A DNA stretch of 36,371 bases from an uncultured Candidatus Saccharibacteria bacterium (lineage in GTDB: Bacteria > Patescibacteriota > Minisyncoccia > Phycocordibacterales > CALRHW01): NCBI GenBank assembly GCA_964390845.1, contig CAYMIL010000001.1:254345-290715 (forward strand), read 5' to 3'. Positions within the stretch are counted from its first letter, which is position 1. The number at the start of each line of letters is the position of its first letter. Below are positions 1 to 34,996 of this stretch, one piece after another. Made by a program: the position numbers and the translations under genes. The notes under the pieces are model-generated. The model did not search any database, was not told the DNA's origin, and saw only the letters and a list, made by a program, of their open reading frames with translations.

Positions 1-1111
1 GGAAGGTAGAGGCTGTTGATGATGTTGCGGTGAAGTATGAGGCGACGACTTGGCCCAATACTGAAAGTGGTGCATACGGAGAAGATGTCCCAATACCAAC
101 ATTCCCTTGGAAATAATTTTGACCTCCAGATGACCAGATTCCATAACCAGAAGAGTTGTTTTGCTGCGCAAAGATAGCATATCCACTTGAAGAATTGTTT
201 TGACCCAATATTCCATACGTAGATCCGAAAGAACTTATTCCAGCACCAGAAGACGTGTCTACGACACTCGCGCTATTTCCCGAACCATCTGAAACATGAA
301 GGCCTCTTTGGTCATCAATATCGGCTATTTCAATCAAATATTCACCTTCAGCAACCGTAAGTTTTGACGATGCAGAAAGCGTGCCGACCGTGGTCGTACC
401 CATAAAATAATTGGTTGCGTTTGTAGATGTTGCATAAAAATTATTTGCAACAACATTTCCAGCAACAGCAAACTTTGCATACGGCGTAGAGGTACCCACA
501 CCAACATTTCCGTTACTCAACAGCGCAAGCACTGACGCCGAACTCTGGCCAATAAATTCGGCAATTTTTCCGGCACCGCTTTGCACAATAGACAAGAAGG
601 TACTTGATGTTGATGTGGCATTTTGTGCGTCAGCTCGCAAGAACTGCTCGCTTGAAAGGCCGTCTATAGTATCCGCAACAAATGCCGCTGGCACCGCCCC
701 AAGTTTCTTTCGGGGTGTCATTTCACCATCCCACGACGGCGAACCGCTTGAACCTCCAATCTCAACACCAAGATACAGTGTTTGGTTGAAATCAACACCA
801 GTAAGTGGCGTAGAACTTCCAAGTAACACGCTAAAGAGGCCGCTCGTCACGGTAACCCTGTCGCCCGCCGCCGTACTTCTGTCTTCGGTCCACACCGGAG
901 AACCACCAGTTTCTGTTGTATACAACTTGAAACGCATGTGGTACACACCGTCAGTCACGGCGACATTACTTGAATCTGTGAGTTTTCCCTGATAGTTGAT
1001 CTGTGGGTTAAACGCCGCGCGCGCAACTGTGGTTACACCACATACACCCACAACAAACACAGCTACCATAAGAGCCCACACTATTCTTTTTTTATTGATA
1101 AAGAAACTCAT
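1..1111 (-). CDS. Large secreted Gly/Ser/Thr/Asn-rich repeat surface protein, N-terminal 370 codons (3' end runs off the window)
   Basis: Absent from the supplied track because there is no in-window stop. Hand translation from ATG 1111-1109 gives MSFFINKKKNMWALMVAVFVVGVCGVTTVARAAFNPQINYQGKLTDSSNVAVTDGVYHMRFKLYTTETGG... and stays open to nt 2. It has an N-terminal signal/anchor helix. The motif GNVG[VI]GTS[TS]PY occurs twice (SNGNVGVGTSTPYAKF, FQGNVGIGTSSPYAPL). It starts 8 nt after the stop of 1120..2658. Confidence 0.6.
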   Translation of the reverse strand, partial: MSFFINKKRIVWALMVAVFVVGVCGVTTVARAAFNPQINYQGKLTDSSNVAVTDGVYHMRFKLYTTETGGSPVWTEDRSTAAGDRVTVTSGLFSVLLGSSTPLTGVDFNQTLYLGVEIGGSSGSPSWDGEMTPRKKLGAVPAAFVADTIDGLSSEQFLRADAQNATSTSSTFLSIVQSGAGKIAEFIGQSSASVLALLSNGNVGVGTSTPYAKFAVAGNVVANNFYATSTNATNYFMGTTTVGTLSASSKLTVAEGEYLIEIADIDDQRGLHVSDGSGNSASVVDTSSGAGISSFGSTYGILGQNNSSSGYAIFAQQNNSSGYGIWSSGGQNYFQGNVGIGTSSPYAPLSVLGQVVASYFTATSSTASTF

Positions 1112-1119
1112 ATACGATC

Positions 1120-2658
1120 TTAATTTCGAATGCGTTTAATATCGCGAACGAAATGTATGATCAGAAGAACAAGAAGAACAAAGATCAAACCGACAATCCC
1201 ATACTTCATAACAGTGAACATATCTGCGTCTGCGCTGAGCGCAGGCATCACCGACACAATAGCTCCTGCTAGTTTTTTAAGACCTTGGTTTTTGTGATCG
1301 ATAATCGCAATACCAAACTCAAATGTTCCCGATCGACCCAACGGAGCTATTACCGCCTCATACGCCGTCTTGTCTTTGTTTACCCGAAGCAAAAAAGAAA
1401 ATGTTTTTGTCGAGTCCTCAGCGTCACGGAGCGTAATCGTAATTGTTTTGAGCACCTCTGGCACTTTGTCATATTCAAGAGCAATTCTCAGTTGTCGATC
1501 ACCTTGAATGTTGACCATAGCACCATCCACATTCAGCCGTTTACCATTTTGGAAGAAGTCGATATCAAGTAAGGTCAACTTCTGAATAAGTGGGTGTACC
1601 AGTGACGAAGCGAGTTCAGCGATACCACCATAAAGGTCTTCTTGCTCAACCGGCTCCCCTGGCTTGTGGAGCTTTTCACGCGTTACAGCACCAGATGAAT
1701 AGTTGCCATATGCATCCTTCACAAACACTCCGTAGTAGTAATATCTTCCGTATTCAACATCCGTGTCCACAAACTTTTCTGCAGTTCCTTCATACACTAC
1801 ATGCCCGTCCCATATGTCCTGCGGGTAGAATGCTTCCGATTTGACGATGCGCACTGAGTCAAAGTCAATCGATGGATTGTTCCATGTGAGGACAATTGTA
1901 TTCTCGTTGCCTACAGCGTGGAGGTTTGTAACGTTTGTAGGCGGAATGAGATCTGGTAGTGATACTGTCGTAAACTGCTGATGTTCAAGAACAAGTATGC
2001 GCCCCTGCGCGTCGGTAAGTGCAATATGGAAGTAATACGTCGTACCTGGATTTAAGTGCTCAAGTGAAACAGTGTGTGCTTTTTTCAATACCCCTGAGGC
2101 AACACTACCGATTTCATAATCTGGGGTCGTGCCCCACATTACGACTGAGTATGTGTAGAGATTAGTCTGAAAACTAATCTGCGCCTCGGCGAGTCCCGCT
2201 TCAACAGAAAGTCCGATAAGCTCAAGACCAACCGTACCGCCACCAACTGTTTCTGATGGTGGATTTTCTGGAGGAATCGGAAGCGTTGTCGCTGTCGCTG
2301 TTGCTGACTGAGCGGATATATTGAACGCGCCGTCAAACGCCGTCACTGTATAACTATAGAGTGTGTTCGGCGCGAGACCTGTGTCTGAATAGAAAGCGCT
2401 TGATGATGTGGCAATGAACACTGAATCTCGAAATACCTGATATCCCGTAACCGCCGCATTGTCTGTAGACGGTGTCCACGTCACATCTATCTGTGATGTC
2501 GAGACAGCTGTTGCTGCAAGACCCGTTGGTACGGAAGGAGCATCCGTATCTGTCAGAATAATATTCTGATGAACTTCGAATGTATCCTCAACAGCGTATC
2601 CCGCGTGGGCCGCCACAAAAATACACGATGCGATAAGGATAAATGAAAGATATTTCAT
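1120..2658 (-). CDS. Fibronectin type III repeat surface protein with signal peptide and C-terminal TM anchor
   Basis: 512-aa ORF. Signal peptide MKYLSFILIASCIFVAAHAGYA. FN3-like module PSVPTGLAATAVSTSQIDVTWTPSTDNAAVTGYQVFRD...YSYTVTAFD, plus two further FN3-like W/Y-pattern modules. C-terminal helix and basic tail: YGIVGLIFVLLVLLIIHFVRDIKRIRN. Confidence 0.7.
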   Translation of the reverse strand: MKYLSFILIASCIFVAAHAGYAVEDTFEVHQNIILTDTDAPSVPTGLAATAVSTSQIDVTWTPSTDNAAVTGYQVFRDSVFIATSSSAFYSDTGLAPNTLYSYTVTAFDGAFNISAQSATATATTLPIPPENPPSETVGGGTVGLELIGLSVEAGLAEAQISFQTNLYTYSVVMWGTTPDYEIGSVASGVLKKAHTVSLEHLNPGTTYYFHIALTDAQGRILVLEHQQFTTVSLPDLIPPTNVTNLHAVGNENTIVLTWNNPSIDFDSVRIVKSEAFYPQDIWDGHVVYEGTAEKFVDTDVEYGRYYYYGVFVKDAYGNYSSGAVTREKLHKPGEPVEQEDLYGGIAELASSLVHPLIQKLTLLDIDFFQNGKRLNVDGAMVNIQGDRQLRIALEYDKVPEVLKTITITLRDAEDSTKTFSFLLRVNKDKTAYEAVIAPLGRSGTFEFGIAIIDHKNQGLKKLAGAIVSVMPALSADADMFTVMKYGIVGLIFVLLVLLIIHFVRDIKRIRN

Positions 2659-2667
2659 GAAGTGCCG

Positions 2668-3444
2668 CTAGAGCGCTATGGCTGTTACTGTTGTCGTTGC
2701 CGTATAGTCTCCTGCTGACTGAACATGTGAAGAACCTGAAACTACCCGAAACTTAAGCACTGTCGCGGTACCCGCAGGGTGATTTGCTGACATACTCTGG
2801 CTCACGGTCTTGTTTGTTGTAGAAAGACCATCCCAACATTTGTCTGGTGTGTCAGATCCCCCAACCTGATCACACAAAAACCCGTCGTCGAGATACCTCT
2901 GCACAATGTCTGCGCCCTCTGGGCTAAATCCAAACTCTGCGTCTGTCGAAGCAACAGAAAACGTAAGGTCGGGACTTGCGCCCGCTGGGGTGTAATCACT
3001 AATTGACCCTCCACCACCCTCTCTCTGCATTGCAGGAGAAGAACTCGCTTTTACAAGAAGCTCGTATCCCGCAGAACTGTCGGTAGTAACCGTCACAATA
3101 GTTGAACCATCTGATGTGCCACCACTCAATCCTCCGATAGACGGACTCATCGTTACATCTCCAGATACAGACACTGCAACATACACTTCCTGCATCTGTT
3201 GATACCCCGCCTTGAGCTTGTATGACGCGCTTGAAGAATTACCTGTTGCGACTTCACCGAGCGTGTCCTCTATTGAATAACTCGTTGATGTGCCAAGCTC
3301 TCCACCAAAATTCACGCTATCGCTCTGGATCGAATAACTTGCACTATCCATAGATGCATCAGATATGTGGGCAGATACAAGAAGTGCTCCACATACAATC
3401 ACACATACACCGAGTACACGATATGTTCTACGAGCGTGGGTCAT
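2668..3444 (-). CDS. Secreted beta-rich surface protein, WxL-like (Trp-less) paralogue 2
   Basis: 258-aa ORF with a signal peptide. Threefold S-x-S-Y-x-[IL] motif near the N-terminus (SASYSIQ, STSYSIE, SASYKLK). Internal strand SAGYELLVKASSSPAMQREGGGGSISDYTP. C-terminal alternating strand AGDYTATTTVTAIAL. Paralogous to 4432..5121. Confidence 0.55.
   Translation of the reverse strand: MTHARRTYRVLGVCVIVCGALLVSAHISDASMDSASYSIQSDSVNFGGELGTSTSYSIEDTLGEVATGNSSSASYKLKAGYQQMQEVYVAVSVSGDVTMSPSIGGLSGGTSDGSTIVTVTTDSSAGYELLVKASSSPAMQREGGGGSISDYTPAGASPDLTFSVASTDAEFGFSPEGADIVQRYLDDGFLCDQVGGSDTPDKCWDGLSTTNKTVSQSMSANHPAGTATVLKFRVVSGSSHVQSAGDYTATTTVTAIAL
3011..3048. repeat. 38-nt block identical to 4793..4830 (copy 1)
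   Basis: The sequence ccaccaccctctctctgcattgcaggagaagaactcgc is present at both sites. It encodes ASSSPAMQREGGG in both paralogues, and the flanking codons differ at synonymous sites. Confidence 0.9.
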
Positions 3445-3450
3445 GAAGTC

Positions 3451-4422
3451 TTACTTTCTCTTAATCTCAAACCGAGTGACAATATATCTAAGTACAAGAA
3501 GAAGCCCCGCGATTCCAACAATCACTACAGCAACAAGTTTTACTGGAATGACCCAGAACGTTACCTGTCGTGTATCAATGATGTCGTTATATCCTCTATT
3601 AATAGAGGCTGTCGCTGTGTAGCGTCCGAGTAAAAAGCCTGGATTCCACTCAACTTCTCGAGTGCGAAATGTTCCTGGCATTGCAAACCACGGACTTACA
3701 TCGACAGCACCAACTTCTTTACCAAACATATTGGTAACACGAATCTCTCCATACGGATTTACGTGTACGCTTCCTGTGTTGTGATACACAAGATGAAATG
3801 GAATTGGTGCGGTATCAAACGCACTTTGATTTCGCGCCGTCGTAAATTCCGTCAACGCACCCTCTGCGTGCACAGGACCTTTTACCCGAATAAAGAACAA
3901 TGTACCTATTCGAGCAACAATTGCATTTGATGCTGGTGCGCCGCTAGACGCAGACTTTGAGACCGTACTTGAAAGCACAGAACCATACAATCCCCCTGGT
4001 TCTGCATCAGCGGGTACAAAGACTGTAACTGGCACCACCGCTCGCTGACCCTGCTTAAGCTCAAAACTTTTCTGTGAGACAGAAAGGTAGTCTCTAAGCG
4101 AATATGGGCCACGGGCATCTCCCAACAATGTAACGGGTGATTCAGGATTATCTGATCCAACAAAATCTTCTATATCGAGATTAAAGATTCTGTCATCACC
4201 CATTCTGTTGGTAACCATGAGGTTTACCACTTTTGTTTCGCCCGGATTCATTTCGAGCTCAACTTTGCCTGGACCGACAACGAAATCGCCAAATACCTCA
4301 TCTGGATTTGGAATTGTTTCGATCGTATACGCAGACACGAATGAACAAGGAACTGCGAGACCTGCAACCATAACCATCGCCACGGTGATACCGAATATTA
4401 AGTTGTTTCGTGTAGCCGACAT
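3451..4422 (-). CDS. Membrane-anchored cell-surface protein with DUF916/DUF3324-like architecture
   Basis: 323-aa ORF. Signal peptide, then GPGKVELEMNPGETKVVNLMVTNRMGDDRIFNLDIEDF (an Ig-like strand pattern typical of the N-terminal domain of that family). A second beta domain ends in GRYTATASI. C-terminal TM helix and basic tail: VKLVAVVIVGIAGLLLVLRYIVTRFEIKRK. Confidence 0.5.
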   Translation of the reverse strand: MSATRNNLIFGITVAMVMVAGLAVPCSFVSAYTIETIPNPDEVFGDFVVGPGKVELEMNPGETKVVNLMVTNRMGDDRIFNLDIEDFVGSDNPESPVTLLGDARGPYSLRDYLSVSQKSFELKQGQRAVVPVTVFVPADAEPGGLYGSVLSSTVSKSASSGAPASNAIVARIGTLFFIRVKGPVHAEGALTEFTTARNQSAFDTAPIPFHLVYHNTGSVHVNPYGEIRVTNMFGKEVGAVDVSPWFAMPGTFRTREVEWNPGFLLGRYTATASINRGYNDIIDTRQVTFWVIPVKLVAVVIVGIAGLLLVLRYIVTRFEIKRK

Positions 4423-4431
4423 TTCAGTAAA

Positions 4432-5121
4432 TTAATTTGTTGTCGCTGTTAATGTCGTCGTCGCGGTATATGTTCCAGAAGCCTTACCAGAACCGCTATT
4501 TAGGAAGGTTCTAAAGACCATTGTAGACGTAGCACCCGATGCCGCCGTTGCGCCCGTCGTGACGATTGTTGAGGTTGCCGTTGTAGAGAGACCCATCCAA
4601 CATGATGCTGAGGAGCTTGTGTCAACACCGCCCGACCAGTTGCATGTTGAAAAACCATCGTCCTTAAACTTTTGAGCAAGCTCACCTGTTGTACTCGCAG
4701 ATACCGTGAATCCAAATTCAGCTCCCGAAGGTACTGAAAATGTGTAGTCAGGAATACCTGCTGTTGCTGGTGTGTAATCATTTATTGAATCACCACCACC
4801 CTCTCTCTGCATTGCAGGAGAAGAACTCGCCTGTACTGTCATCGTAAACCCAAGATTGTTGTTCGTTGCGACGCGGACACTTGTTGTCCCGTATGCAGAA
4901 CCTCCAGTCGTACCGGCGATAGAACCGTTCATTGTCACGTCACTTGCAGGTGCCGCGAATGAAATCTCCGCTGTGATTGTTTGATGAATCTCGAACTGAT
5001 CTTCCGCTGATGCCGAGCGTCCGAGAGTAGGCTCGACAGCCGCAAAACCAACCGAGAGGATAAGTGTCAAAAAGACACTCGTCGCAATCGCTCGTCTTGC
5101 ATCTGTAATTTTCATAATCAT
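4432..5121 (-). CDS. Secreted beta-rich surface protein, WxL-like (Trp-less) paralogue 1
   Basis: The track ORF 4432..5142 begins at a TTG. ATGs at 5121 and 5115 (MIMKITDARRAIATSVFLTLILSVGFAAV...) are more plausible starts, and 5115 is the alternative. Internal strand LGFTMTVQASSSPAMQREGGGDSINDYTP. C-terminal strand SGTYTATTTLTATTN. Confidence 0.55.
   Translation of the reverse strand: MIMKITDARRAIATSVFLTLILSVGFAAVEPTLGRSASAEDQFEIHQTITAEISFAAPASDVTMNGSIAGTTGGSAYGTTSVRVATNNNLGFTMTVQASSSPAMQREGGGDSINDYTPATAGIPDYTFSVPSGAEFGFTVSASTTGELAQKFKDDGFSTCNWSGGVDTSSSASCWMGLSTTATSTIVTTGATAASGATSTMVFRTFLNSGSGKASGTYTATTTLTATTN
4793..4830. repeat. 38-nt block identical to 3011..3048 (copy 2)
   Basis: Same 38-mer, read directly from the sequence. 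Confidence 0.9.
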
Positions 5122-5178
5122 ACCTTTGTAATTAATTAACAAAACTCACCTTGATAAATAATTGTTCGACCTTTCAGG

Positions 5179-5233
5179 CCAGTGCGCCTGTCCTCGAAGC
5201 TCCCCACGGAAGCGCCGAGGACAAGTGCACTGG
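5179..5233 (-). other. Long GC-rich imperfect inverted repeat (RNA hairpin or protein-binding site) between the regulator gene and the surface operon
   Basis: The arms ccagtgcgcctgtcctcg (5179-5196) and cgaggacaagtgcactgg (5216-5233) pair over 18 positions, with one A.C mismatch and one G.U wobble. The 19-nt spacer can itself pair (gcttcc/ggGagc). No U-tract follows on the minus strand. Confidence 0.6.
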
Positions 5234-5238
5234 AGTTA

Positions 5239-6144
5239 TTAATCGCCCGGAGCACGTGACACACCATCATCGACAGGCACGAGTACGTACACATAATCGC
5301 CACCATCCTGTGTATGCTTAAAGACAGGCTGAATAACTCCTGATGTTCCTGTTTCGTCTGGTATCACTCGCGTCTCATCCGAAAACGCATTTTTAATCTT
5401 TTGCTTTGTTTTTTCGTCGGTAGCTTGGTCGCCAGAACTTGGGACAACCGCAATGCCAAAATTATTTTTTTCTCCGGTAACGACAGTGTCGAGATGTGTT
5501 GTGTCACGCACAACGAGAGTTTGTGATGTATTTGTGTTGAAGATTCGAGAAAGAGTTTTGTACGTACCGAGTGCTGTTGTGTTTAGAAATCGTGCGAACA
5601 TTCCAAGTGTACGATCTGTGAAGTATGCAGTCTTTCCCATTGGAGATGTTGCGGAAGATTCTTCAACAAGCGCAACGTATCGAGTAACATCAGAGGCAAC
5701 GTGCGCGACGAGATTTCGATTAAACGTAATCGTGTTTTCTGCAAATTCAGCAACACGGATCTGTGTTGTTGGATTGTAGGTCATCATGGCAACAAAGACG
5801 ATACATGCAATAGCGGGCACGATAGCAATGTACGAAATCGCACGACGCACCCTTTCGTCAAACACGGACGGCAGAGAGATTGACGCCTGCACGACCACTG
5901 GCTCATGTTTTGATGTTGATGGAGAACCTGGAAAATAAATAATTCCCCGAGGTTTTTCTGAACTACTTTTTTGATGCTGGAGAAGTGACTCTTCGCTTAC
6001 AAACCAGCTCCTTCCAACAAGTCTGCAGTCGAGTTTTTCTTTTCGGCAGAGTTGTCCGATATAATCCGAATTATAGCCACTAATTTGTGAAGCTCGTCTA
6101 GCCGAGATATATTTTTTTCCTTCAAAATAGAGCTCACTGTTCAT
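5239..6144 (-). CDS. Membrane-tethered protein: N-terminal HTH-like domain, one TM helix, ~175-aa extracytoplasmic domain
   Basis: The track ORF is 5239..6150. A TATAAT at 6153-6158 lies only 2 nt from ATG 6150 but 8 nt from ATG 6144, so 6144 is preferred. N-terminus KYISARRASQISGYNSDYIGQLCRKEKLDCRLVGRSWFVSEESL looks like a MerR/excisionase-type HTH. TM segment AISYIAIVPAIACIVFVAMMTY. Confidence 0.6.
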   Translation of the reverse strand: MNSELYFEGKKYISARRASQISGYNSDYIGQLCRKEKLDCRLVGRSWFVSEESLLQHQKSSSEKPRGIIYFPGSPSTSKHEPVVVQASISLPSVFDERVRRAISYIAIVPAIACIVFVAMMTYNPTTQIRVAEFAENTITFNRNLVAHVASDVTRYVALVEESSATSPMGKTAYFTDRTLGMFARFLNTTALGTYKTLSRIFNTNTSQTLVVRDTTHLDTVVTGEKNNFGIAVVPSSGDQATDEKTKQKIKNAFSDETRVIPDETGTSGVIQPVFKHTQDGGDYVYVLVPVDDGVSRAPGD

Positions 6145-6211
6145 TTGCATTAATTATATCTTTTCAAGCACGACAAATGAACGTTTTTTTGGGGATAACA
6201 ACACGATTTTT

Positions 6212-6232
6212 TGTAGCAAAAATATTGCTACA
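6212..6232. promoter_or_regulatory. Perfect palindrome TGTAGCAA-n5-TTGCTACA in the divergent intergenic region
   Basis: 8-bp arms at 6212-6219 and 6225-6232, read from the sequence. Candidate operator. Confidence 0.4.
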
Positions 6233-6403
6233 TTTTTTATTCAAAATACATGGTCGCTCTTAAAAAATACCTGCAGATACTCTTTTTTCTAAACCTGCCA
6301 AAAGTAGTTTTTACATTCGGATCAATGCACGCTCAAACACAACAAGACCTGCGCTATGCGTACACTACCTAATCGATACAAAAGTTATCAACACTTTTAA
6401 ACA

Positions 6404-6432
6404 TTGATAAAGCATACAAACTTTACTACAAT
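6404..6432 (+). promoter_or_regulatory. Sigma-70-type promoter for 6472..6714
   Basis: TTGATA (6404-6409), 17-nt spacer, TACAAT (6427-6432). The -35 lies in the right arm of the inverted repeat TTATCAA(6385-6391)/TTGATAA(6404-6410). A tandem GTTTAGTAA x2 (6442-6450, 6452-6460) lies between the -10 and the ATG. Confidence 0.6.
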
Positions 6433-6471
6433 TTAAATAACGTTTAGTAATGTTTAGTAAACTTAAATCCA

Positions 6472-6714
6472 ATGAGTGATTCGTTCCTAACAATCAAACA
6501 AGTAGCCAAAATTTTGGGAGTAACACCTCTCACTCTACGTAATTGGGACAAGAATGGAAAGTTTGAAGCGGGCAGACACCCTATCAACAACTACCGTGTA
6601 TACCGACGATCAGATGTTGAGGCGTTTATAGAAAAAATGGGCGCAAAAAACTCGACAACACGAAAGATGAAAAATCAAGTGAAAAAACTTGATGTACTAC
6701 ACCTCGAAGACTAG
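6472..6714 (+). CDS. Small MerR/excisionase-type helix-turn-helix DNA-binding protein
   Basis: 80-aa ORF and the only credible plus-strand gene. LTIKQVAKILGVTPLTLRNWDKNGKFEAGRHPINNYRVYRRSDVEAF matches the MerR-family N-terminal HTH pattern (TLRxW...G...R....R.Y). Confidence 0.7.
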   Translation: MSDSFLTIKQVAKILGVTPLTLRNWDKNGKFEAGRHPINNYRVYRRSDVEAFIEKMGAKNSTTRKMKNQVKKLDVLHLED

Positions 6715-8165
6715 GAGCGCTTGAGTATACTGAGCAACAACTCTTTAAGCATTGATGGATTAGCAGAACCCTTCGTTGCCTTCATTCCCTGACCAACAAG
6801 AAACTGCAATGCCGACTCTTTTCCGTTTGCATAATCAGCAACTACTGAAGGATTGTCCGAAACAATTTTTTCTATAACCACCTTCAATTCATCTGCATTA
6901 TTTTTTTGAATAAGATTTCTTTCCTGTATGATCGTAAGAACATCTCCCCCTTCTTCATACACAACCTTGAGTGCGTCCTTTGCACCGCGTGAAGACAATT
7001 CATTTTTTCCAACAAGTCCGATAAGTGTTGCAAACTGTTGCGCGGGAATCTTTGATGCTGGGTTTTCAAGAACAGTATCAATATCAACCCCTGAGGTCTT
7101 TACCAAACCAACAAAGTCAGAGGATAGATAGTTAGACACAAGCTTCACAAGCTTTTCATCCTTCCCCACAAACGAAGCAACTGTTTCAAAATATGAACCG
7201 AGTCCGCGTACCTTTGTATACATGTCGGCGTCCTCTGCTTTCATAGCATAGTCTTTTACAAAGCGCTCTCGCTTAACCCACGGAAGTTCTGGCAATGACG
7301 CCTTCAGTGCGTCGGGAGCAAACTCTGAGACATGTGAGATATACAATTTTGGAAGATCAGGGTCTGGAAAATATCGATAGTCATGTGATTCTTCTTTGAG
7401 TCGCTGAGAAAATGTTTTTTGCGCGCCCTCATCCCATCCGCGAGTTTCTTGAACAACCTTCTCCCCTGCCTCAAGAAGTTCGATGTGTCGACGCATTTCA
7501 AATTCGATTGCTTTTTCTACAGCTTTAAATGAATTGAGATTCTTTACCTCAACTTTAGTACCAAACACACCTGGAGTCTTACTTACAGAAATATTTGCTT
7601 CAACACGCATTTCTCCTTTTTCCATGTTTGCATCTCCCGCGCCAAGGTACTGAAGGAGCAACTGCAATTCTTTCGCAAAACGACCCGCATCTGCTGGGTT
7701 ATGGATCACGGGCTCTGTCACGAGCTCCATAAGAGGCACACCTGCGCGGTTGAAATCAACGAGGCTGTAATCGCCCTCATCATGACTCGACTTTGCGGTA
7801 TCTTCTTCAAGATGAATACGCGTAAGCGCAACACCGGCAAGATTCCCACCTTTTACAAGAGGATATTTGTACTGACTAATCTGATACCCCTTAGGAATGT
7901 CTGGGTAAAAATAGTTTTTTCTATCAAACTCAGTAAAATCTGCGAGATCTCCCCCGACAGCAAGCCCCATTCGAAGTACGTGCGCAATAGCTTCTTTGTT
8001 GATAACAGGAAGTGTGCCAGGGTGGCCCATGCACACAGGACATACGTTTACGTTTGGACGCTTCTCTTCGGGGTCATTCTTTGAGTCACAGAACATCTTT
8101 GTTCTGGTCTTGAGCTCCGCGTGGACTTCAAGGCCCACAGTAAGGGTGTAGTCTGATTCGGCCAT
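6711..8165 (-). CDS. gatB: Asp-tRNA(Asn)/Glu-tRNA(Gln) amidotransferase subunit B
   Basis: 484 aa. N-terminus YTLTVGLEVHAELKTRTKMFC...NVCPVCMGHPGTLPV and a C-terminal YqeY-like tail are typical of GatB. Confidence 0.9.
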   Translation of the reverse strand: MAESDYTLTVGLEVHAELKTRTKMFCDSKNDPEEKRPNVNVCPVCMGHPGTLPVINKEAIAHVLRMGLAVGGDLADFTEFDRKNYFYPDIPKGYQISQYKYPLVKGGNLAGVALTRIHLEEDTAKSSHDEGDYSLVDFNRAGVPLMELVTEPVIHNPADAGRFAKELQLLLQYLGAGDANMEKGEMRVEANISVSKTPGVFGTKVEVKNLNSFKAVEKAIEFEMRRHIELLEAGEKVVQETRGWDEGAQKTFSQRLKEESHDYRYFPDPDLPKLYISHVSEFAPDALKASLPELPWVKRERFVKDYAMKAEDADMYTKVRGLGSYFETVASFVGKDEKLVKLVSNYLSSDFVGLVKTSGVDIDTVLENPASKIPAQQFATLIGLVGKNELSSRGAKDALKVVYEEGGDVLTIIQERNLIQKNNADELKVVIEKIVSDNPSVVADYANGKESALQFLVGQGMKATKGSANPSMLKELLLSILKRS

Positions 8166-26865: not shown

Positions 26866-28569
26866 TTACTGTGATATATCGAGTACTTTTCTAAGGACAT
26901 CTTCCGGAACTTCTTTAGGTTGCGCAGGCGCGCGCTCCTCTTTTTTCTCAGGAGCTATCTTTTCGGGTGCTGGCTCTACTGGTTTTTGTATAACCGATGC
27001 GAGCGCTTGTTTGAGACTCGAAATGTTTTCTGGTGTTGGCACTTTTTTATCAACGGGCTTTTTCTCTTTCTTTTTCAAATGTTCAAGCGATACTGTCTGT
27101 GGTGGCGCAGGCTCTTTTATCTCAATTTTCCCATCAGGAGCAACGTGAAGATGTTTGAACGGATTCTCCTGCTGAGGCATCTCTGGTGTCGGCGGAGCTT
27201 TTTCTCGCCTCTGCTCCGAGTGACGAGCTTGCTCAGGAGAACGAGGTTGCTGTTTTGTAGACTGCTTCTGCGGTGATGCGGAAATAGGCTCGTGCCATTT
27301 AAAGATATCGTCCTCCACTTCTTTGCGTGGACGCGCAAAGACACGTCGAGAATGTTCAATAATCTGCTCACGAAACAGCTGTTCAGGTTTTGCGATTGGC
27401 GGCAAACCTGTCGCCGAAAATGGTGGTGAGGTAACACCGTCGATCATGAGCTTCAGATAAATCTGATACATGCCGAGATTGACCAGATCCTCTGCAGTAA
27501 ACACCGGCATAAACTCTTTCTCAAACACTTCTGCATCATAGGCACCAACACGGAAAACAATCATTGTGCCGACGTTACCAAAGACAGCGGCTCGCACCTC
27601 CTCCGACATTTGTTCGATGTATTGGTGGGCGACCGTCAAATTGAGCTTGTACTTTCGAGCCTCAGAAAGAATATCAGCAAACGACTCGTTGGCAAAGTTT
27701 TGAAATTCATCCACAAAAAGATAAAACTGTGGGAGTTTGTTGAGCTCAGCCTCAGAAGCATCGGCGCGTGACATCGCCGCAAGGTAGATTTTTGTAATGA
27801 GCATACTTCCCAGAAGGTTTGCATTTGCCTCACCTACTCGCCCCTTGGAGAGATTGACGATGATAATCTTGCGCTCGTCCATTGCCTTGCGGATATCAAA
27901 TGTCGATTTTGGCTGGCCGATAATGTTGCGCACGAGAGGATTCGACACAAACTGACCAATTTTGTTTTGAATAGCCGCACCCGCCTCTTGCATATAACGC
28001 TCTCCGTACTTATTAAACTCATCAATCCAAAAGGCTTTCACAGATGGATCAGACACATTGTCGACTACTTTATTTCTATACTCTTTGTCGGCAAGCATTC
28101 TGTTGACACCGAGGAGTGTTGAGTCTGGATACTCAAGCAGAGCAAGGAGGATATTGTTGAGAATATACTCCATACGAGCCGACCATGCATCGACCCAAAT
28201 CTTTTTAAACGCACTCATGAGGCCGTTGGCAACAAGATGGCGCTTGTTGGGACCAACGTCCTCCATCACGTTAAATGATATTGGGAAATCTGTATCAAAC
28301 GGAGCGAAGTAGATAACGTCTTGTATGCGGTGTTCTGGCACATACTCAAGAAGCAAATCAGCGGTCTTGCCGTGTGGGTCGATAAATGCCATACCTTCCC
28401 CATTCTTAATATCTTGCACCGCCATGTTTTCAAGCAAGGTAGATTTTCCCATGCCTGTTTTTCCAATGACGTACACATGACGCGAGCGGTCTTTCGCTTT
28501 TATACCAAAGGAGACTTTCTGATTTCGGGAATCGGTTTGCCCAAAATATGTGATTGCGTTCGGGTTCAT
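26866..28569 (-). CDS. TraD/VirD4-like (coupling-protein-type) P-loop ATPase, soluble, with a ~150-aa disordered K/P/E-rich tail
   Basis: The track starts at GTG 28587; the first ATG is 28569 (MNPNAITYFG). Walker A IGKTGMGKSTL. Walker B FYLFVDEFQNF. LTVAHQYIEQM. No TM helix. An extended -10 TGaTATACT lies 18 nt upstream of ATG 28569. Confidence 0.65.
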   Translation of the reverse strand: MNPNAITYFGQTDSRNQKVSFGIKAKDRSRHVYVIGKTGMGKSTLLENMAVQDIKNGEGMAFIDPHGKTADLLLEYVPEHRIQDVIYFAPFDTDFPISFNVMEDVGPNKRHLVANGLMSAFKKIWVDAWSARMEYILNNILLALLEYPDSTLLGVNRMLADKEYRNKVVDNVSDPSVKAFWIDEFNKYGERYMQEAGAAIQNKIGQFVSNPLVRNIIGQPKSTFDIRKAMDERKIIIVNLSKGRVGEANANLLGSMLITKIYLAAMSRADASEAELNKLPQFYLFVDEFQNFANESFADILSEARKYKLNLTVAHQYIEQMSEEVRAAVFGNVGTMIVFRVGAYDAEVFEKEFMPVFTAEDLVNLGMYQIYLKLMIDGVTSPPFSATGLPPIAKPEQLFREQIIEHSRRVFARPRKEVEDDIFKWHEPISASPQKQSTKQQPRSPEQARHSEQRREKAPPTPEMPQQENPFKHLHVAPDGKIEIKEPAPPQTVSLEHLKKKEKKPVDKKVPTPENISSLKQALASVIQKPVEPAPEKIAPEKKEERAPAQPKEVPEDVLRKVLDISQ

Positions 28570-28614
28570 ACGCGTAGAACTAGACACAGTATATCACACA
28601 GACGAAGTCCGCAT

Positions 28615-32916: not shown

Positions 32917-33357
32917 TTAATTACCGCATGATGATTCATTGAGATCACCGTCTGTTGAGGTTATTTTCGCCCAAAAACCCACATCCGATGAACTAAAACA
33001 CCTATAATCTCCTTCCCCAACTTTTAGATACACAACATACGAGGAAGAACCGTCATAACACCTAAAAAAAGTCCCCGTATCTGGAAAAGGAGTACCTCCT
33101 CCATACGTATCAGACATCGACTCAAGCCCACGCCGTATCTGAGTATCGTCTTGGCACATTCTTCCATAGGAGAAGTTGTCGTTGTAGTACTGTTCCAAAA
33201 GCGGACGGATAGTGGAAAAACTTTGCCTGATCGACACTTCTCGGGCGCGTGTCCGCGTATCAGAAAGCATGGCAAGCACGACAGAAGTCACAATCGCAAT
33301 GATGGCGATTACCACAAGAAGCTCTATAAGAGTAAAACCTCGACGAGACCCGCGCAT
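32917..33357 (-). CDS. Type IV pilin-like protein (prepilin N-terminal cleavage/methylation motif)
   Basis: ATG 33357 gives MRGSRRG|FTLIELLVVIAIIAIVTSVVLAML, a class III signal peptide followed by a G/FTLIE motif. Four Cys in the globular part. TATACT (33369-33364) lies 6 nt upstream of the ATG. Confidence 0.8.
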   Translation of the reverse strand: MRGSRRGFTLIELLVVIAIIAIVTSVVLAMLSDTRTRAREVSIRQSFSTIRPLLEQYYNDNFSYGRMCQDDTQIRRGLESMSDTYGGGTPFPDTGTFFRCYDGSSSYVVYLKVGEGDYRCFSSSDVGFWAKITSTDGDLNESSCGN

Positions 33358-33387
33358 ACAGACAGTATAGCGCAAAAGACGCCTCTA

Positions 33388-34809
33388 CTATATCACTTCA
33401 ACGAGAAGCATATTTGTCTTCACGTTTTTTGTATTAAAGGGTGCGCCTGCGGCAATAACCACCGTATCACCTTTCTCGGCAAAGCCGTGTTTCAAACAAA
33501 AAGCACGAATTGTTTTAAAAGCATCAGTAAGTGTCGTACATCGGTCAATTTCCACGGGACAACATCCGAAACTTAAATTAAGTTTACTACACACGCGCGC
33601 CTGAGGAGAGAGCGCCATAATAAGCTGTGCTGGTTTGTATCGAGACACCATGCGCGCAGTGAATCCTGTTTCGGTAAGTGCAAAAATAAGTTTTGCACCA
33701 ACCGCATGCGCGGTGTCGACCGTTGCGGCGGTTACAGAGTTGACAACATCCATACCTCGCGTATGCGTACTACCAACATCGCATCGCTCAGAAAGACCAC
33801 GCTCTACCTCAAGAGCAACACGAGTCATCACCTCAACCGCTTCTACAGGATACGCGCCGAGCGTTGTTTCCTCAGACAACATCACTGCATCAGTACCATC
33901 AAGAATTGCGTTTGCGATATCAGACACTTCTGCGCGTGTCGGTGTCGGTGATTCAATCATCGAATCGAGCATCTGTGTTGCGGTGATTACTGGCTTTCCT
34001 ACGTTGTTACATTTCTCGATAATCATCTTCTGAATCATCGGCACCTGTTCTGCAGGAACCTCGATTGCCAAATCTCCACGCGCCACCATAATGCCATCTG
34101 CAAGCGCGATAATGTCATCGATATGCTCAACCGCTTCAGGCGTTTCAATCTTTGCGATGATACCCGCGTCGAGCTTTGCACGCTTCATCATATCTCGCAA
34201 TTCTGCGACATCTTCTGGGCGGCGAACAAATGAAAGCGCAACAAAATCCACTTTATGTTTTACCGCAAATGCGAAATCCGCCCGATCTTTATCAGTGATG
34301 GAGCTAATCTTCAAATATGCGCCAGGAAAATTTGCGCCGCGACGACCGCGTATCTCACCGCCAACAACAACACGACACACAACTTCTTTTTTCTTAATAT
34401 CAACAACCTCAAGGCGCTTACGACCGTCATCAAGGAGCACGGCGCCACCAACGCGTACTTCCTTGGGTAATGTTGGATAATTGATGAATACACGCTCTAC
34501 GTTCCCAACGCACGGCTGTGTTGTAAGTGTAAAGAGTTCGCCCTCCTTCAAGACAATAGATTCCGTTTCAAAATCTCCAATACGAATTTTTGGACCACAC
34601 AAATCTTGGAGTATACCGATACTTCGGCCGAGCTTGTCCATAAGTGCTCGCGCTGTGCGAATACGACGTCCATGCTCTACATGATCACCATGAGAAAAGT
34701 TGAGTCGTATGACATCAACACCAGCTTCAACAAGCCTCTCCATCATCTCGGCAGACTCTGTTGCTGGACCAATCGTTGCTACAATTTTTGTCTTTTTTCG
34801 TATATCCAT
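33388..34809 (-). CDS. pyk: Pyruvate kinase
   Basis: The track ORF extends to 34938 across the tRNA gene. The real start is ATG 34809 (MDIRKKTKIVATIGPATES). NFSHG. MVARGDLAIEVP. ATQMLDSM. Confidence 0.9.
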   Translation of the reverse strand: MDIRKKTKIVATIGPATESAEMMERLVEAGVDVIRLNFSHGDHVEHGRRIRTARALMDKLGRSIGILQDLCGPKIRIGDFETESIVLKEGELFTLTTQPCVGNVERVFINYPTLPKEVRVGGAVLLDDGRKRLEVVDIKKKEVVCRVVVGGEIRGRRGANFPGAYLKISSITDKDRADFAFAVKHKVDFVALSFVRRPEDVAELRDMMKRAKLDAGIIAKIETPEAVEHIDDIIALADGIMVARGDLAIEVPAEQVPMIQKMIIEKCNNVGKPVITATQMLDSMIESPTPTRAEVSDIANAILDGTDAVMLSEETTLGAYPVEAVEVMTRVALEVERGLSERCDVGSTHTRGMDVVNSVTAATVDTAHAVGAKLIFALTETGFTARMVSRYKPAQLIMALSPQARVCSKLNLSFGCCPVEIDRCTTLTDAFKTIRAFCLKHGFAEKGDTVVIAAGAPFNTKNVKTNMLLVEVI

Positions 34810-34853
34810 AGAAATAAAATGGCGCCATAAAGGCGCAACACTACCCACATACC

Positions 34854-34929
34854 TGGTGCGCGCACTAGGAGTCGAACCTAGGACCTTTCGAGTATCAGTC
34901 GAATGCTCTACCAGCTGAGCTATGCGCGC
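34854..34929 (-). tRNA. tRNA-Ile (anticodon GAU), CCA encoded
   Basis: The reverse complement folds by hand as GCGCGCA-TA-GCTC-AGCTGGTA-GAGC-A-TTCGA-CTGATAC-TCGAA-AGGTC-CTAGG-TTCGACT-CCTAG-TGCGCGC-ACCA. It is 76 nt and all four stems are fully paired. Confidence 0.9.
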
Positions 34930-34996
34930 ATACGGCACGGACCCACGCCCATGCGATGTTCATAAAATCTAGCAAAAAACCGCCATAAAAACAACT

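Follow-up and report, generated by a model that had tools for sequence, protein, structure and literature searches.

A Paceibacteria gene cluster that probably encodes a compact Pam-like pilus, with a chaperone-like protein homologous to Firmicute WxLIP

Bacteria of the Candidate Phyla Radiation (CPR, or Patescibacteria) are thought to live attached to other cells, and Paceibacteria are the largest and least cultivated CPR class. To our knowledge, the mechanism of contact is not known for most CPR bacteria outside a few cultivated Saccharibacteria. Filaments of one CPR parasite, Ca. Mycosynbacter amalyticus (Saccharimonadia), have been solved and the corresponding pam operon has been defined (10.64898/2026.03.03.709456). 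Here we compare this system, and the WxL/Csc clusters of Lactobacillales, with five genes (A to E) found at the start of a 36,371-nt stretch of contig CAYMIL010000001.1. This stretch, called the window below, belongs to an organism that is known from metagenome assemblies only. Our analysis suggests that the cluster is probably the Paceibacteria version of a CPR-type (Pam-like) pilus, that is, a Sec-dependent fibre that is built without an usher and held together by strand complementation.

In the pam system, PamA and PamB are two-domain pilins (an N-terminal domain, a linker strand and a truncated Ig C-terminal domain) that undergo donor-strand exchange, and PamT is a single-domain tip pilin described without a linker strand. 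PamC and PamD are PapD-like chaperones with a C-terminal transmembrane (TM) helix. The tether PamR (32.8 kDa) has an extra strand at its N-terminus, two FnIII domains and, at its C-terminus, a TM helix. Pam operons have a tail-fibre-like protein as a central neighbour and ATP synthase genes nearby; the main text of the preprint mentions neither Paceibacteria nor WxL nor DUF916 (10.64898/2026.03.03.709456). For the WxL/Csc clusters, AlphaFold2 modelling predicted a hairpin of the partner protein WxLIP inserted into the WxL protein, completing its fold (PMC10599100), and a solved structure of the WxLIP-WxL complex exists (PDB 9i25). The binding of WxL proteins to peptidoglycan is considered non-covalent, and polymerisation is not known for them. 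An earlier note, made from the letters of this DNA, had read the A-E cluster as a WxL locus lacking Trp in a CPR-like genome. The genome setting was confirmed, since the context is that of Paceibacteria; the WxL assignment has to be divided between the subunits and their partner, as described below.

Paralogous subunits A and C

The cluster consists of five minus-strand open reading frames (ORFs; Table 1) separated by spacers of 9, 6, 9 and 8 nt (A-B, B-C, C-D and D-E, respectively). A hydrophobic signal or anchor segment was found at the N-terminus of all five products, and B and D have a second, C-terminal TM segment. The tight packing and the signal or anchor helices had been correctly described in the earlier note, as had the relationship between A and C. 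These two proteins are 42% identical over 198 aa (E=2e-38), and both of the motifs quoted for them, ASSSPAMQREGGG.SI.DYTP and the C-terminal G.YTATTT.TA, are present in each.

The proposal that A and C are WxL-type proteins without Trp was not upheld. A contains two Trp and C one (W204, which is invariant); these residues sit in a CW.GL context, and only the W-x-L motif is absent from both proteins in a motif scan. The Pfam WxL model matched 0/62 family members at E<0.1. When the pilin family was compared by hhalign with five real WxL proteins and with ten WxL domains, values of 2.2% (full length) and 0.5% were obtained. The WxL and WxLIP sequences used for comparison were fetched from real WxL loci on Firmicute plasmids, those of the WxL proteins coming from Enterococcus, Lactococcus, Lactiplantibacillus, Lactobacillus, Levilactobacillus and Vagococcus. 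A search of the family profile against PDB sequences gave nothing meaningful and no WxL chain. The WxL chain 9i25_A, though present in the structure library, was not among the best 50 Foldseek matches of the C model, the 50th of which had E=0.29; a weaker similarity of C to this chain would fall outside that list. From the Pfam, hhalign and motif results, A and C were rejected as WxL proteins.

A different family was indicated for C by NCBIfam. C matched model NF058579, 'CPR-type pilus protein PamT', at E=8.3e-11 (41.8 bits), residues 11-138 being aligned with positions 5-131 of the 241 in the profile. This was the sole useful match, since PHROG and NCBIfam scans of A, B and the upstream gene U303 (see below) gave nothing useful. 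The PamT model was matched by 61/62 members of the pilin family (best E=3e-14), all of them far under the cut-off of 240 bits. The match covers the N-terminal repeat region of C and is kept in long relatives in which this region is internal; it is thus not a signal-peptide artefact. A score of this size shows homology with PamT rather than equivalog membership.

The AlphaFold2 (AF2) monomer of C is a confident beta-sandwich over residues 88-258, with a predicted local distance difference test (pLDDT) score above 90. Residues 29-85 are strongly conserved yet modelled with pLDDT<50. This part of the mature protein contains three exact 19-residue repeats, placed at Y37, Y56 and Y75, and the last of them leads into a near-invariant LKAGYQQMQEVY strand. 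Judging from the monomer model, a segment that is disordered but conserved shows the behaviour expected of one that would fold only against a partner. In A, a candidate donor strand lies at the N-terminus of the mature protein, with the family consensus A[IV]EDQFT[IV].Q.[IV]T.EISF.

When the C model was compared with PDB by Foldseek, the best-ranked matches were weak and were mostly donor-strand subunits, with a few unrelated chains among them. They included the TasA fibre, the PapG pilin domain (prob 0.94), CfaB (0.96), PapE, FimG, CsuA/B and FimA. Donor-strand pilins were the very case that the earlier note had named as contrary to a WxL assignment, and it is this case that the PamT match and the weak Foldseek matches favour. 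The best single match of the pilin model was TasA (8aur_A, E=0.017, prob 0.60), and TasA fibres likewise assemble by donor-strand complementation. This could be an indication that A and C form a TasA/camelysin-like or other self-assembling beta-sandwich fibre that needs no chaperone, B being an unrelated Ig-like surface protein. We regard this explanation as very improbable. The TasA match is itself weak (TM-score 0.24-0.26), neither the Peptidase_M73/TasA nor the SCPU model of Pfam matched any of the 62 family members, and the locus showed no gene resembling SipW or TapA. Furthermore, fusions of B with a pilin in many genomes (see below) argue for a direct partnership between the two. A and C are probably pilins similar to the PamT type.

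The ASSSPAMQREGGG.SI.DYTP loop is nearly identical between A and C of this genome and variable across genomes. Both paralogues have the same version of it in 4/7 parsable loci and different versions in the others; gene conversion or a shared partner surface could account for a common version. Concerted evolution of this A/C loop (PAMQREGGG) had been considered as an explanation and was dropped in view of the mixed pattern over the seven loci.

Gene B, a homologue of WxLIP

B is a homologue of Firmicute WxLIP (DUF916) with a fold like that of PapD, CfaA and CsuC. The Pfam model WxLIP_PGBD (DUF916) was matched by 65/65 aligned B relatives at E<0.01 (best 3.7e-9), the window protein alone reaching E=1.3e-3 and 19.2 bits, under the gathering cut-off of 27.3. 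A search of PDB with the B family profile retrieved chains 9i25_C and 9i1y_A, 'EfmWxLIP1', at E=1e-7. In hhalign, the CPR B family and eight Firmicute WxLIPs were aligned with 96.1% probability (E=3.4e-9) over 298 columns that take in the signal peptide, both domains and the TM helix. The probability was 94.5-96.1% across the B-WxLIP comparisons, and two cross-controls gave 2.4% and 0.6%. The earlier note had taken B for the DUF916/DUF3324 partner of WxL proteins, and the DUF916 part of this claim is supported. The DUF3324 part found no sequence match, as this Pfam model hit none of the 65 family members scanned; the second domain of B and its TM helix are nonetheless inside the hhalign alignment to WxLIPs.

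The architecture that had been proposed for B is also that of its AF2 monomer (pLDDT 89.6), in which a signal peptide is followed by two beta-sandwich domains, a TM helix and a basic tail. The top Foldseek matches of this model were the E. faecium WxLIP structures 9i1y and 9i25_C (E=3e-12; about 270 aligned columns with 9i1y). RbmA came next, and after it the chaperone-usher chaperones CfaA, CsuC, Caf1M, FimC, DraB and FaeE; for CfaA, CsuC, Caf1M, FimC and DraB, E values ranged from 1e-9 to 1e-6 and TM-scores reached 0.54 on the target. The likeness to chaperone-usher chaperones is one of fold, as B matched neither PapD_N nor PapD_C of Pfam. For B and D, NCBIfam gave no match to PamC, PamD or PamR.

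One element of B deserves attention in relation to the subunits. A G1-like strand at residues 167-180 is preceded by a variable loop of low confidence, with a dip in pLDDT over residues 151-170, and R171, L175 and F177 are invariant across the family. The strand would correspond in position to the hairpin described for WxLIP (PMC10599100). By analogy with that hairpin, it may be the element that completes the subunit fold of A and C.

The homology of B raises the question of a WxL-type static complex, in which B would permanently hold A and C at the cell surface or wall, no fibre would be formed, and D and E would be independent, co-expressed adhesins. WxLIP is the demonstrated homologue of B and its best structural match. 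Moreover, the locus has a Csc/WxL-like layout, with two small paralogues flanking a TM-anchored two-domain protein and large surface proteins adjoining, and its subunit family has small and large forms with the domain always C-terminal, as in small and large WxL proteins (PMC9772566). The fusions of B with C described below would suit a stable complex as well as a transient one. We nevertheless consider a static complex unlikely. No WxL signal was found in A or C by Pfam, by profile-profile comparison, by motif or among the best 50 Foldseek matches, and DUF3324 has no sequence match in the B family. LPXTG motifs are absent from the cluster products, and the window proteins scanned include no sortase. 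A static complex would also leave unexplained both the similarity of C to PamT and the N-terminal strands of A and D, with their covariation within genomes.

A Firmicute reference locus for these comparisons lies on an Enterococcus raffinosus megaplasmid (NZ_CP081847.1, 150695-161078). There, three small WxL genes form a single block with the genes for WxLIP, an LPXTG protein, a class A sortase and a pectate-lyase-like adhesin. Small WxL proteins have a short N-terminal strand (…SNGVVEF…) and a Pro-rich linker before the domain, a layout that resembles that of an N-terminal donor strand.

Gene order, tether and proposed assembly

A relative is encoded in 296 GTDB species genomes (scan of species genomes), and the family comprises 1,816 clusters at 50% identity (E<=1e-3). 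In order to compare gene order, 80 loci from different Paceibacteria species were fetched and annotated with hidden Markov models built here; the names represented are Zambryski-, Kaiser-, Taylor-, Lloyd- and Nomurabacteria, Parcubacteria and Paceibacterota. The order U303-[A]-B-C-D-E was found in essentially every one of the 80 loci that is uncut by a contig end, with median intergenic gaps of 2-12 nt. The earlier note had suggested looking for the same order in other genomes, and the order does recur. C-type pilin, B and D are present in nearly all uncut loci, and the A-type pilin in 51 of about 76. D directly follows the C-type pilin gene in 75 loci, and E lies downstream of D in at least 43.

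B and C are fused into a single ORF at 4/80 species loci; among the 150 best representative clusters, 15 show the same fusion. In the fusions, the chaperone and its TM segment are followed by a short cytoplasmic loop, a second TM segment that corresponds to the pilin signal peptide with its A-x-A site kept, and the pilin. As read from the sequence, this topology would place the chaperone and pilin ectodomains both outside the cell. Natural gene fusions of this kind (Rosetta-stone proteins) speak for a direct partnership of B and C and support physical contact between them.

A further 33 of the 150 best representative clusters are longer proteins in which the pilin domain is C-terminal. Of ten long relatives scanned with Pfam, seven contain an N-terminal or inserted Laminin_G_3, DUF2341, Gly_rich_2 or FN3 domain. 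This layout is shared with the two-domain tip adhesins of chaperone-usher systems, of PamA and PamB, and of 'large WxL' proteins.

The FN3 domains and the TM anchor attributed to D in the earlier note were both found, by Pfam (fn3, E=1.4e-13) and as a C-terminal TM segment. The N-terminal strand of mature D lies directly after the predicted signal-peptidase site and is amphipathic, with the family consensus A[AV]EDQF.[IV]...[IV][TV]. The signature EDQF.[IV] is common to the mature N-termini of D and of the A-type pilin. A strict form of the strand motif occurs in 41% of D proteins and 37% of upstream (A-type) pilins, compared with 0.5% of other ORFs. The identity between A and D strands within a genome is 0.41 versus 0.30 +/- 0.02 after permutation, and 0/5000 permutations gave a value as high, a significance that is inflated by shared ancestry. 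In one related locus (L008), EDQFTVKQ occurs in both strands. Such likeness would be expected if D docks in the donor-strand groove of a pilin, thereby ending the chain and tethering it. By its architecture, D is the equivalent of PamR.

The first position of the window falls at a scaffold N-gap within gene E, so that E is incomplete here. On a longer public contig used for context (ENA ERZ28656156 scaffold_59, L001), E would have about 1,600 codons if reading runs through the gap, across which the frame is uncertain. That E is a large repeat protein had been noted correctly, since direct repeats are present. The gap (L001:13445-13546) is flanked by direct repeats of 129-153 nt that encode a '…VGIGTTSPYA.LSV.GQVVASYFTATSSTASTF…' unit; the repeats are therefore the probable cause of the assembly break. 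The C-terminal region of E has a Peptidase_S74 ('chaperone of endosialidase') domain (E=1.9e-12), and this intramolecular-chaperone domain points to a trimeric fibre. The N-terminus of E was also considered as a donor strand and was rejected, as its FN.QINYQGKLT... segment continues into a conserved block of about 130 residues that looks like a folded domain.

The Peptidase_S74 domain and a weak PHROG tail-fibre match of E, together with matches of the D FN3 domains to phage tail PHROGs, could be taken to mean that the cluster is a prophage or tail-fibre remnant, in other words a degenerate phage receptor-binding module. This origin is hardly credible. No other phage genes lie nearby, and the cluster is flanked by housekeeping genes (GatB, Obg, SecA, Mur ligases and MurJ). 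In 80 species, a chromosomal locus shows the same order. PHROG gave no matches for A, B and C, and the pilin model had no meaningful match in the viral structure library searched with Foldseek.

Several observations weigh against a Pam-like pilus. The locus lacks two-domain major pilins of the PamA/PamB type and has only the single-domain subunits of 229 and 258 aa. The PamT score of C is 41.8 against the 240 bits of the model and comes from the N-terminal half of the profile only. A has no Pfam or NCBIfam match, and hence no PamT match by itself. Foldseek with the C model gave nothing at E<=0.001. There is one chaperone at the locus rather than two, and neither the window genes scanned nor the 20.8-kb stretch read on the longer contig include an ATP synthase gene. 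B also resembles RbmA, the fold that the preprint gives to the tether PamR (10.64898/2026.03.03.709456); the roles of B and D could therefore be split differently. Lastly, the structures predicted are those of B and C as monomers, so that the strand exchange proposed here is inferred.

A Pam-like pilus nonetheless remains the explanation we favour, and the following assembly pathway can be proposed. Export of all products by Sec is shown by the signal peptide of each, and the fibre would be assembled on the cytoplasmic membrane of a monoderm cell. Membrane-anchored B would lend a beta-strand to the incomplete beta-sandwich of newly exported A and C and hold them in this way, as suggested by the homology with WxLIP and its solved WxL complex, by the fold shared with chaperone-usher chaperones and by the B-C fusions. 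Subunits would then be joined head to tail, the conserved N-terminal strand of one displacing the chaperone strand in the next. D, with its A-like N-terminal strand and C-terminal TM helix, would cap the proximal end and tether the fibre, a role that the covariation of the two strands supports. The large, trimeric, tail-fibre-like E would be co-produced with the fibre as the probable adhesive or host-contact element. Overall, the cluster is likely to serve an epibiotic CPR bacterium in contacting, or attaching to, host cells or surfaces.

Upstream region, neighbouring genes and comparison with known systems

U303 lies directly upstream of the cluster in 62 related loci. Its product combines a cytoplasmic HTH_17 (helix-turn-helix, HTH) domain, found by Pfam in 16/23 orthologues (best E=1.1e-9), with one TM segment and a conserved extracytoplasmic C-terminal motif, …SFSDEV.V.PD..GTSGVITPVFK….DYLYVLVPV. 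This arrangement makes U303 a candidate membrane-bound one-component regulator, and in the proposed scheme it probably regulates the operon. The 119-nt intergenic RNA between U303 and A contains a hairpin and has a minimum free energy of -47.6 kcal/mol (z=-5.4; 0/200 shuffles as stable). At the same position, 25/49 related loci have hairpins of other sequence (z<-3), so that the stem sequence varies and the structure is kept. The hairpin may be a terminator or an mRNA-stability element between the regulator and the pilin genes.

Just downstream of the hairpin lies the motif AAAGGTCGAA-N-ATTATTA, a candidate promoter or operator. GGTCGA was found upstream in 25/68 loci, where background density would predict about 2.6, and the hairpin is also present in 20 of these loci. 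In a scan of positions 1-6800 for sigma-70 promoters and terminators, sites were no commoner than in shuffled sequence.

Features outside the cluster are included in Table 1. The window also encodes a type IV pilin-like protein (N_methyl motif, E=2.9e-9) and a coupling ATPase of the TrwB/VirD4/TraG kind, surrounded by Mur ligases, GT4 glycosyltransferases in a block, and a Wzy_C+TPR protein. Apart from the A-E cluster, the genome thus seems to contain parts of two or more further surface or transfer systems. A tRNA-Ile (GAT) overlaps the 5' end of a GTG-initiated pyruvate kinase ORF; the Pfam match of the latter begins at residue 48, and its true start must be further downstream.

Table 1. Location of the features discussed (positions in the window, except where a related locus is named; residues are those of the protein concerned)
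Feature	Position	Strand	Description
Gene A	4432..5121	minus	ORF, 229 aa; secreted pilin-like subunit, 'upstream' type; signal peptide, N-terminal amphipathic strand, beta-sandwich domain, Cys pair C160/C174
N-terminal strand of mature A, AEDQFEIHQTITAEISF	4957..5007	minus	Residues 39-55; candidate donor strand
Gene B	3451..4422	minus	ORF, 323 aa; membrane-anchored two-domain chaperone-like protein
G1-like strand of B, AIVARIGTLFFIRV	3883..3924	minus	Residues 167-180; candidate strand completing the subunit fold
C-terminal TM helix of B	3472..3543	minus	Residues 294-317 (AF2); hydrophobic segment 284-320; basic tail after it
Gene C	2668..3444	minus	ORF, 258 aa; secreted pilin-like subunit, 'downstream', PamT-like type; beta-sandwich ~88-258, invariant Cys pair C191/C203, invariant W204
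N-terminal region of mature C	3175..3345	minus	Residues 34-90; three 19-residue repeats S-x-S-Y-x-[IL]
Gene D	1120..2658	minus	ORF, 512 aa; putative membrane tether; signal peptide, N-terminal strand, FN3 domains (about three), extra domain, C-terminal TM 478-510
N-terminal strand of mature D, VEDTFEVHQNIILT	2551..2592	minus	Residues 23-36
Gene E, 5' part	1..1111	minus	Partial ORF, 370 codons; secreted tail-fibre-like repeat protein
U303	5239..6150	minus	303 aa; N-terminal cytoplasmic HTH_17, one TM (101-128), conserved extracytoplasmic C-terminal motif
Hairpin	5179..5233	minus	24-bp stem; directly after the U303 stop codon
Motif AAAGGTCGAA-N-ATTATTA	5155..5174	minus	~30 nt upstream of the A start
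B-C fusions in related loci	L030:8137-9723, L058:8053-9720, L063:2064-3650, L073:8137-9723		Single ORFs, 529-556 aa
Type IV pilin-like gene	32917..33375	minus	N_methyl motif
Coupling ATPase	26866..28587	minus	TrwB/VirD4/TraG-like
tRNA-Ile (GAT)	34854..34929	minus	Overlaps the 5' end of the pyruvate kinase ORF
Pyruvate kinase ORF	33388..34938		GTG start

What is new in this locus is a bridge, namely a chaperone of a CPR system that is demonstrably homologous to WxLIP. Because the chaperone matches WxLIP while the subunit matches PamT, the locus would link the two systems at the level of sequence. We tentatively raise the possibility, which we hold to be somewhat less probable than its opposite, that Pam-type pili and WxL/Csc clusters are two branches of one ancient usher-less system of monoderm bacteria based on strand donation by a chaperone. 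The basis for such common ancestry is the homology that has been shown for the chaperones; homology of the subunits lacks support in the searches run. If this is true, WxL proteins could be recast as pilin-like, strand-exchanging subunits, and a fibre system widespread in Paceibacteria (296 GTDB species or more, and 1,816 or more clusters at 50% identity) would have been overlooked. No paper linking WxL with donor strands was found within the literature searched, and the homology between B and WxLIP joins two fields whose papers do not cite one another. The link suggests a common principle of surface display in bacteria without an outer membrane and makes the function of Firmicute WxL clusters newly testable. 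A compact, highly conserved module that is widespread in Paceibacteria also provides concrete candidates for studies of host attachment.

Among the known systems, chaperone-usher pili (Pap/Fim, CFA/I, Csu and Caf1) resemble the locus in three respects: the fold of B matches CfaA, CsuC, Caf1M and FimC; the weak Foldseek matches of C are mostly their pilin subunits; and the family has adhesin-type relatives in which a lectin domain precedes a C-terminal pilin domain. In contrast to these pili, B is membrane-anchored and not periplasmic, there is no outer membrane, and no usher gene and no PapD Pfam match were found among the proteins scanned. No PapD_N, PapD_C or Fimbrial Pfam match is present in the locus, and the subunit domain of C is larger (about 170 aa) and follows a repeat-bearing N-terminal region of 55 residues. 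TasA fibres (Bacillus subtilis, PDB 8aur) are also made in a monoderm cell from secreted beta-sandwich subunits by donor-strand joining, which for our locus is proposed by inference. They differ from it in that no sequence-family match exists between them and in the use of SipW and TapA rather than a two-domain membrane chaperone and an FN3 tether.

The WxL/Csc clusters of Lactobacillales (PMC10599100, PMC9772566, PDB 9i1y, 9i25) have several features in common with the locus. B and WxLIP share a signal peptide, two beta-sandwiches, a TM segment and a basic tail. Each cluster has two small paralogous secreted proteins and large surface proteins, and the partner domain is always C-terminal in large forms. 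Donation of a WxLIP strand to the WxL beta-sandwich is mechanistically the same as chaperone-subunit complementation. The differences concern the subunits first, as no test run identified A or C as a WxL domain. W-x-L, LPXTG and a DUF3324 sequence match were not found, nor was a sortase among the window proteins scanned; an LPXTG protein or a sortase is frequent in WxL clusters and not universal. Unlike our locus with its D protein, WxL clusters have no tether bearing a pilin-like N-terminal strand. Membership of the WxL clusters fails because there is no WxL domain.

Of the systems described so far, the Pam pilus comes nearest to the locus. The comparison with it was made through the NCBIfam PamT model and the descriptions in the preprint, PamC, PamD and PamR being likened by description only. 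The filaments of Mycosynbacter have been solved, whereas the present locus is known from genes and monomer models. It belongs to the Paceibacteria lineage, has no two-domain pilin (PamA, PamB or PamE), one chaperone and no ATP-synthase neighbourhood, and is preceded by a conserved HTH-TM gene. C is under the PamT equivalog cut-off (41.8 versus 240 bits) and carries a triple S-x-x-Y repeat at its N-terminus, and D exceeds PamR in size (512 aa, comprising about three FN3 domains plus an extra domain, versus 32.8 kDa). In spite of these differences, both systems are restricted to CPR bacteria, have Sec signal peptides on all components and use no usher, sortase or ATPase. C resembles the single-domain PamT in its profile match (E=8e-11) and in size (258 aa versus a model of 241 positions); B is like PamC and PamD in its two Ig-like domains, PapD-like fold and C-terminal TM helix; and D is like PamR, in architecture only, in its FnIII domains, C-terminal TM helix and extra N-terminal strand. 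A tail-fibre-like gene adjoins the operon in both cases, and the subunits of both have paired cysteines. Outside WxL membership and outside the PamT equivalog threshold, the locus is best filed as a compact variant, in a different class, of the CPR Pam-type pilus.

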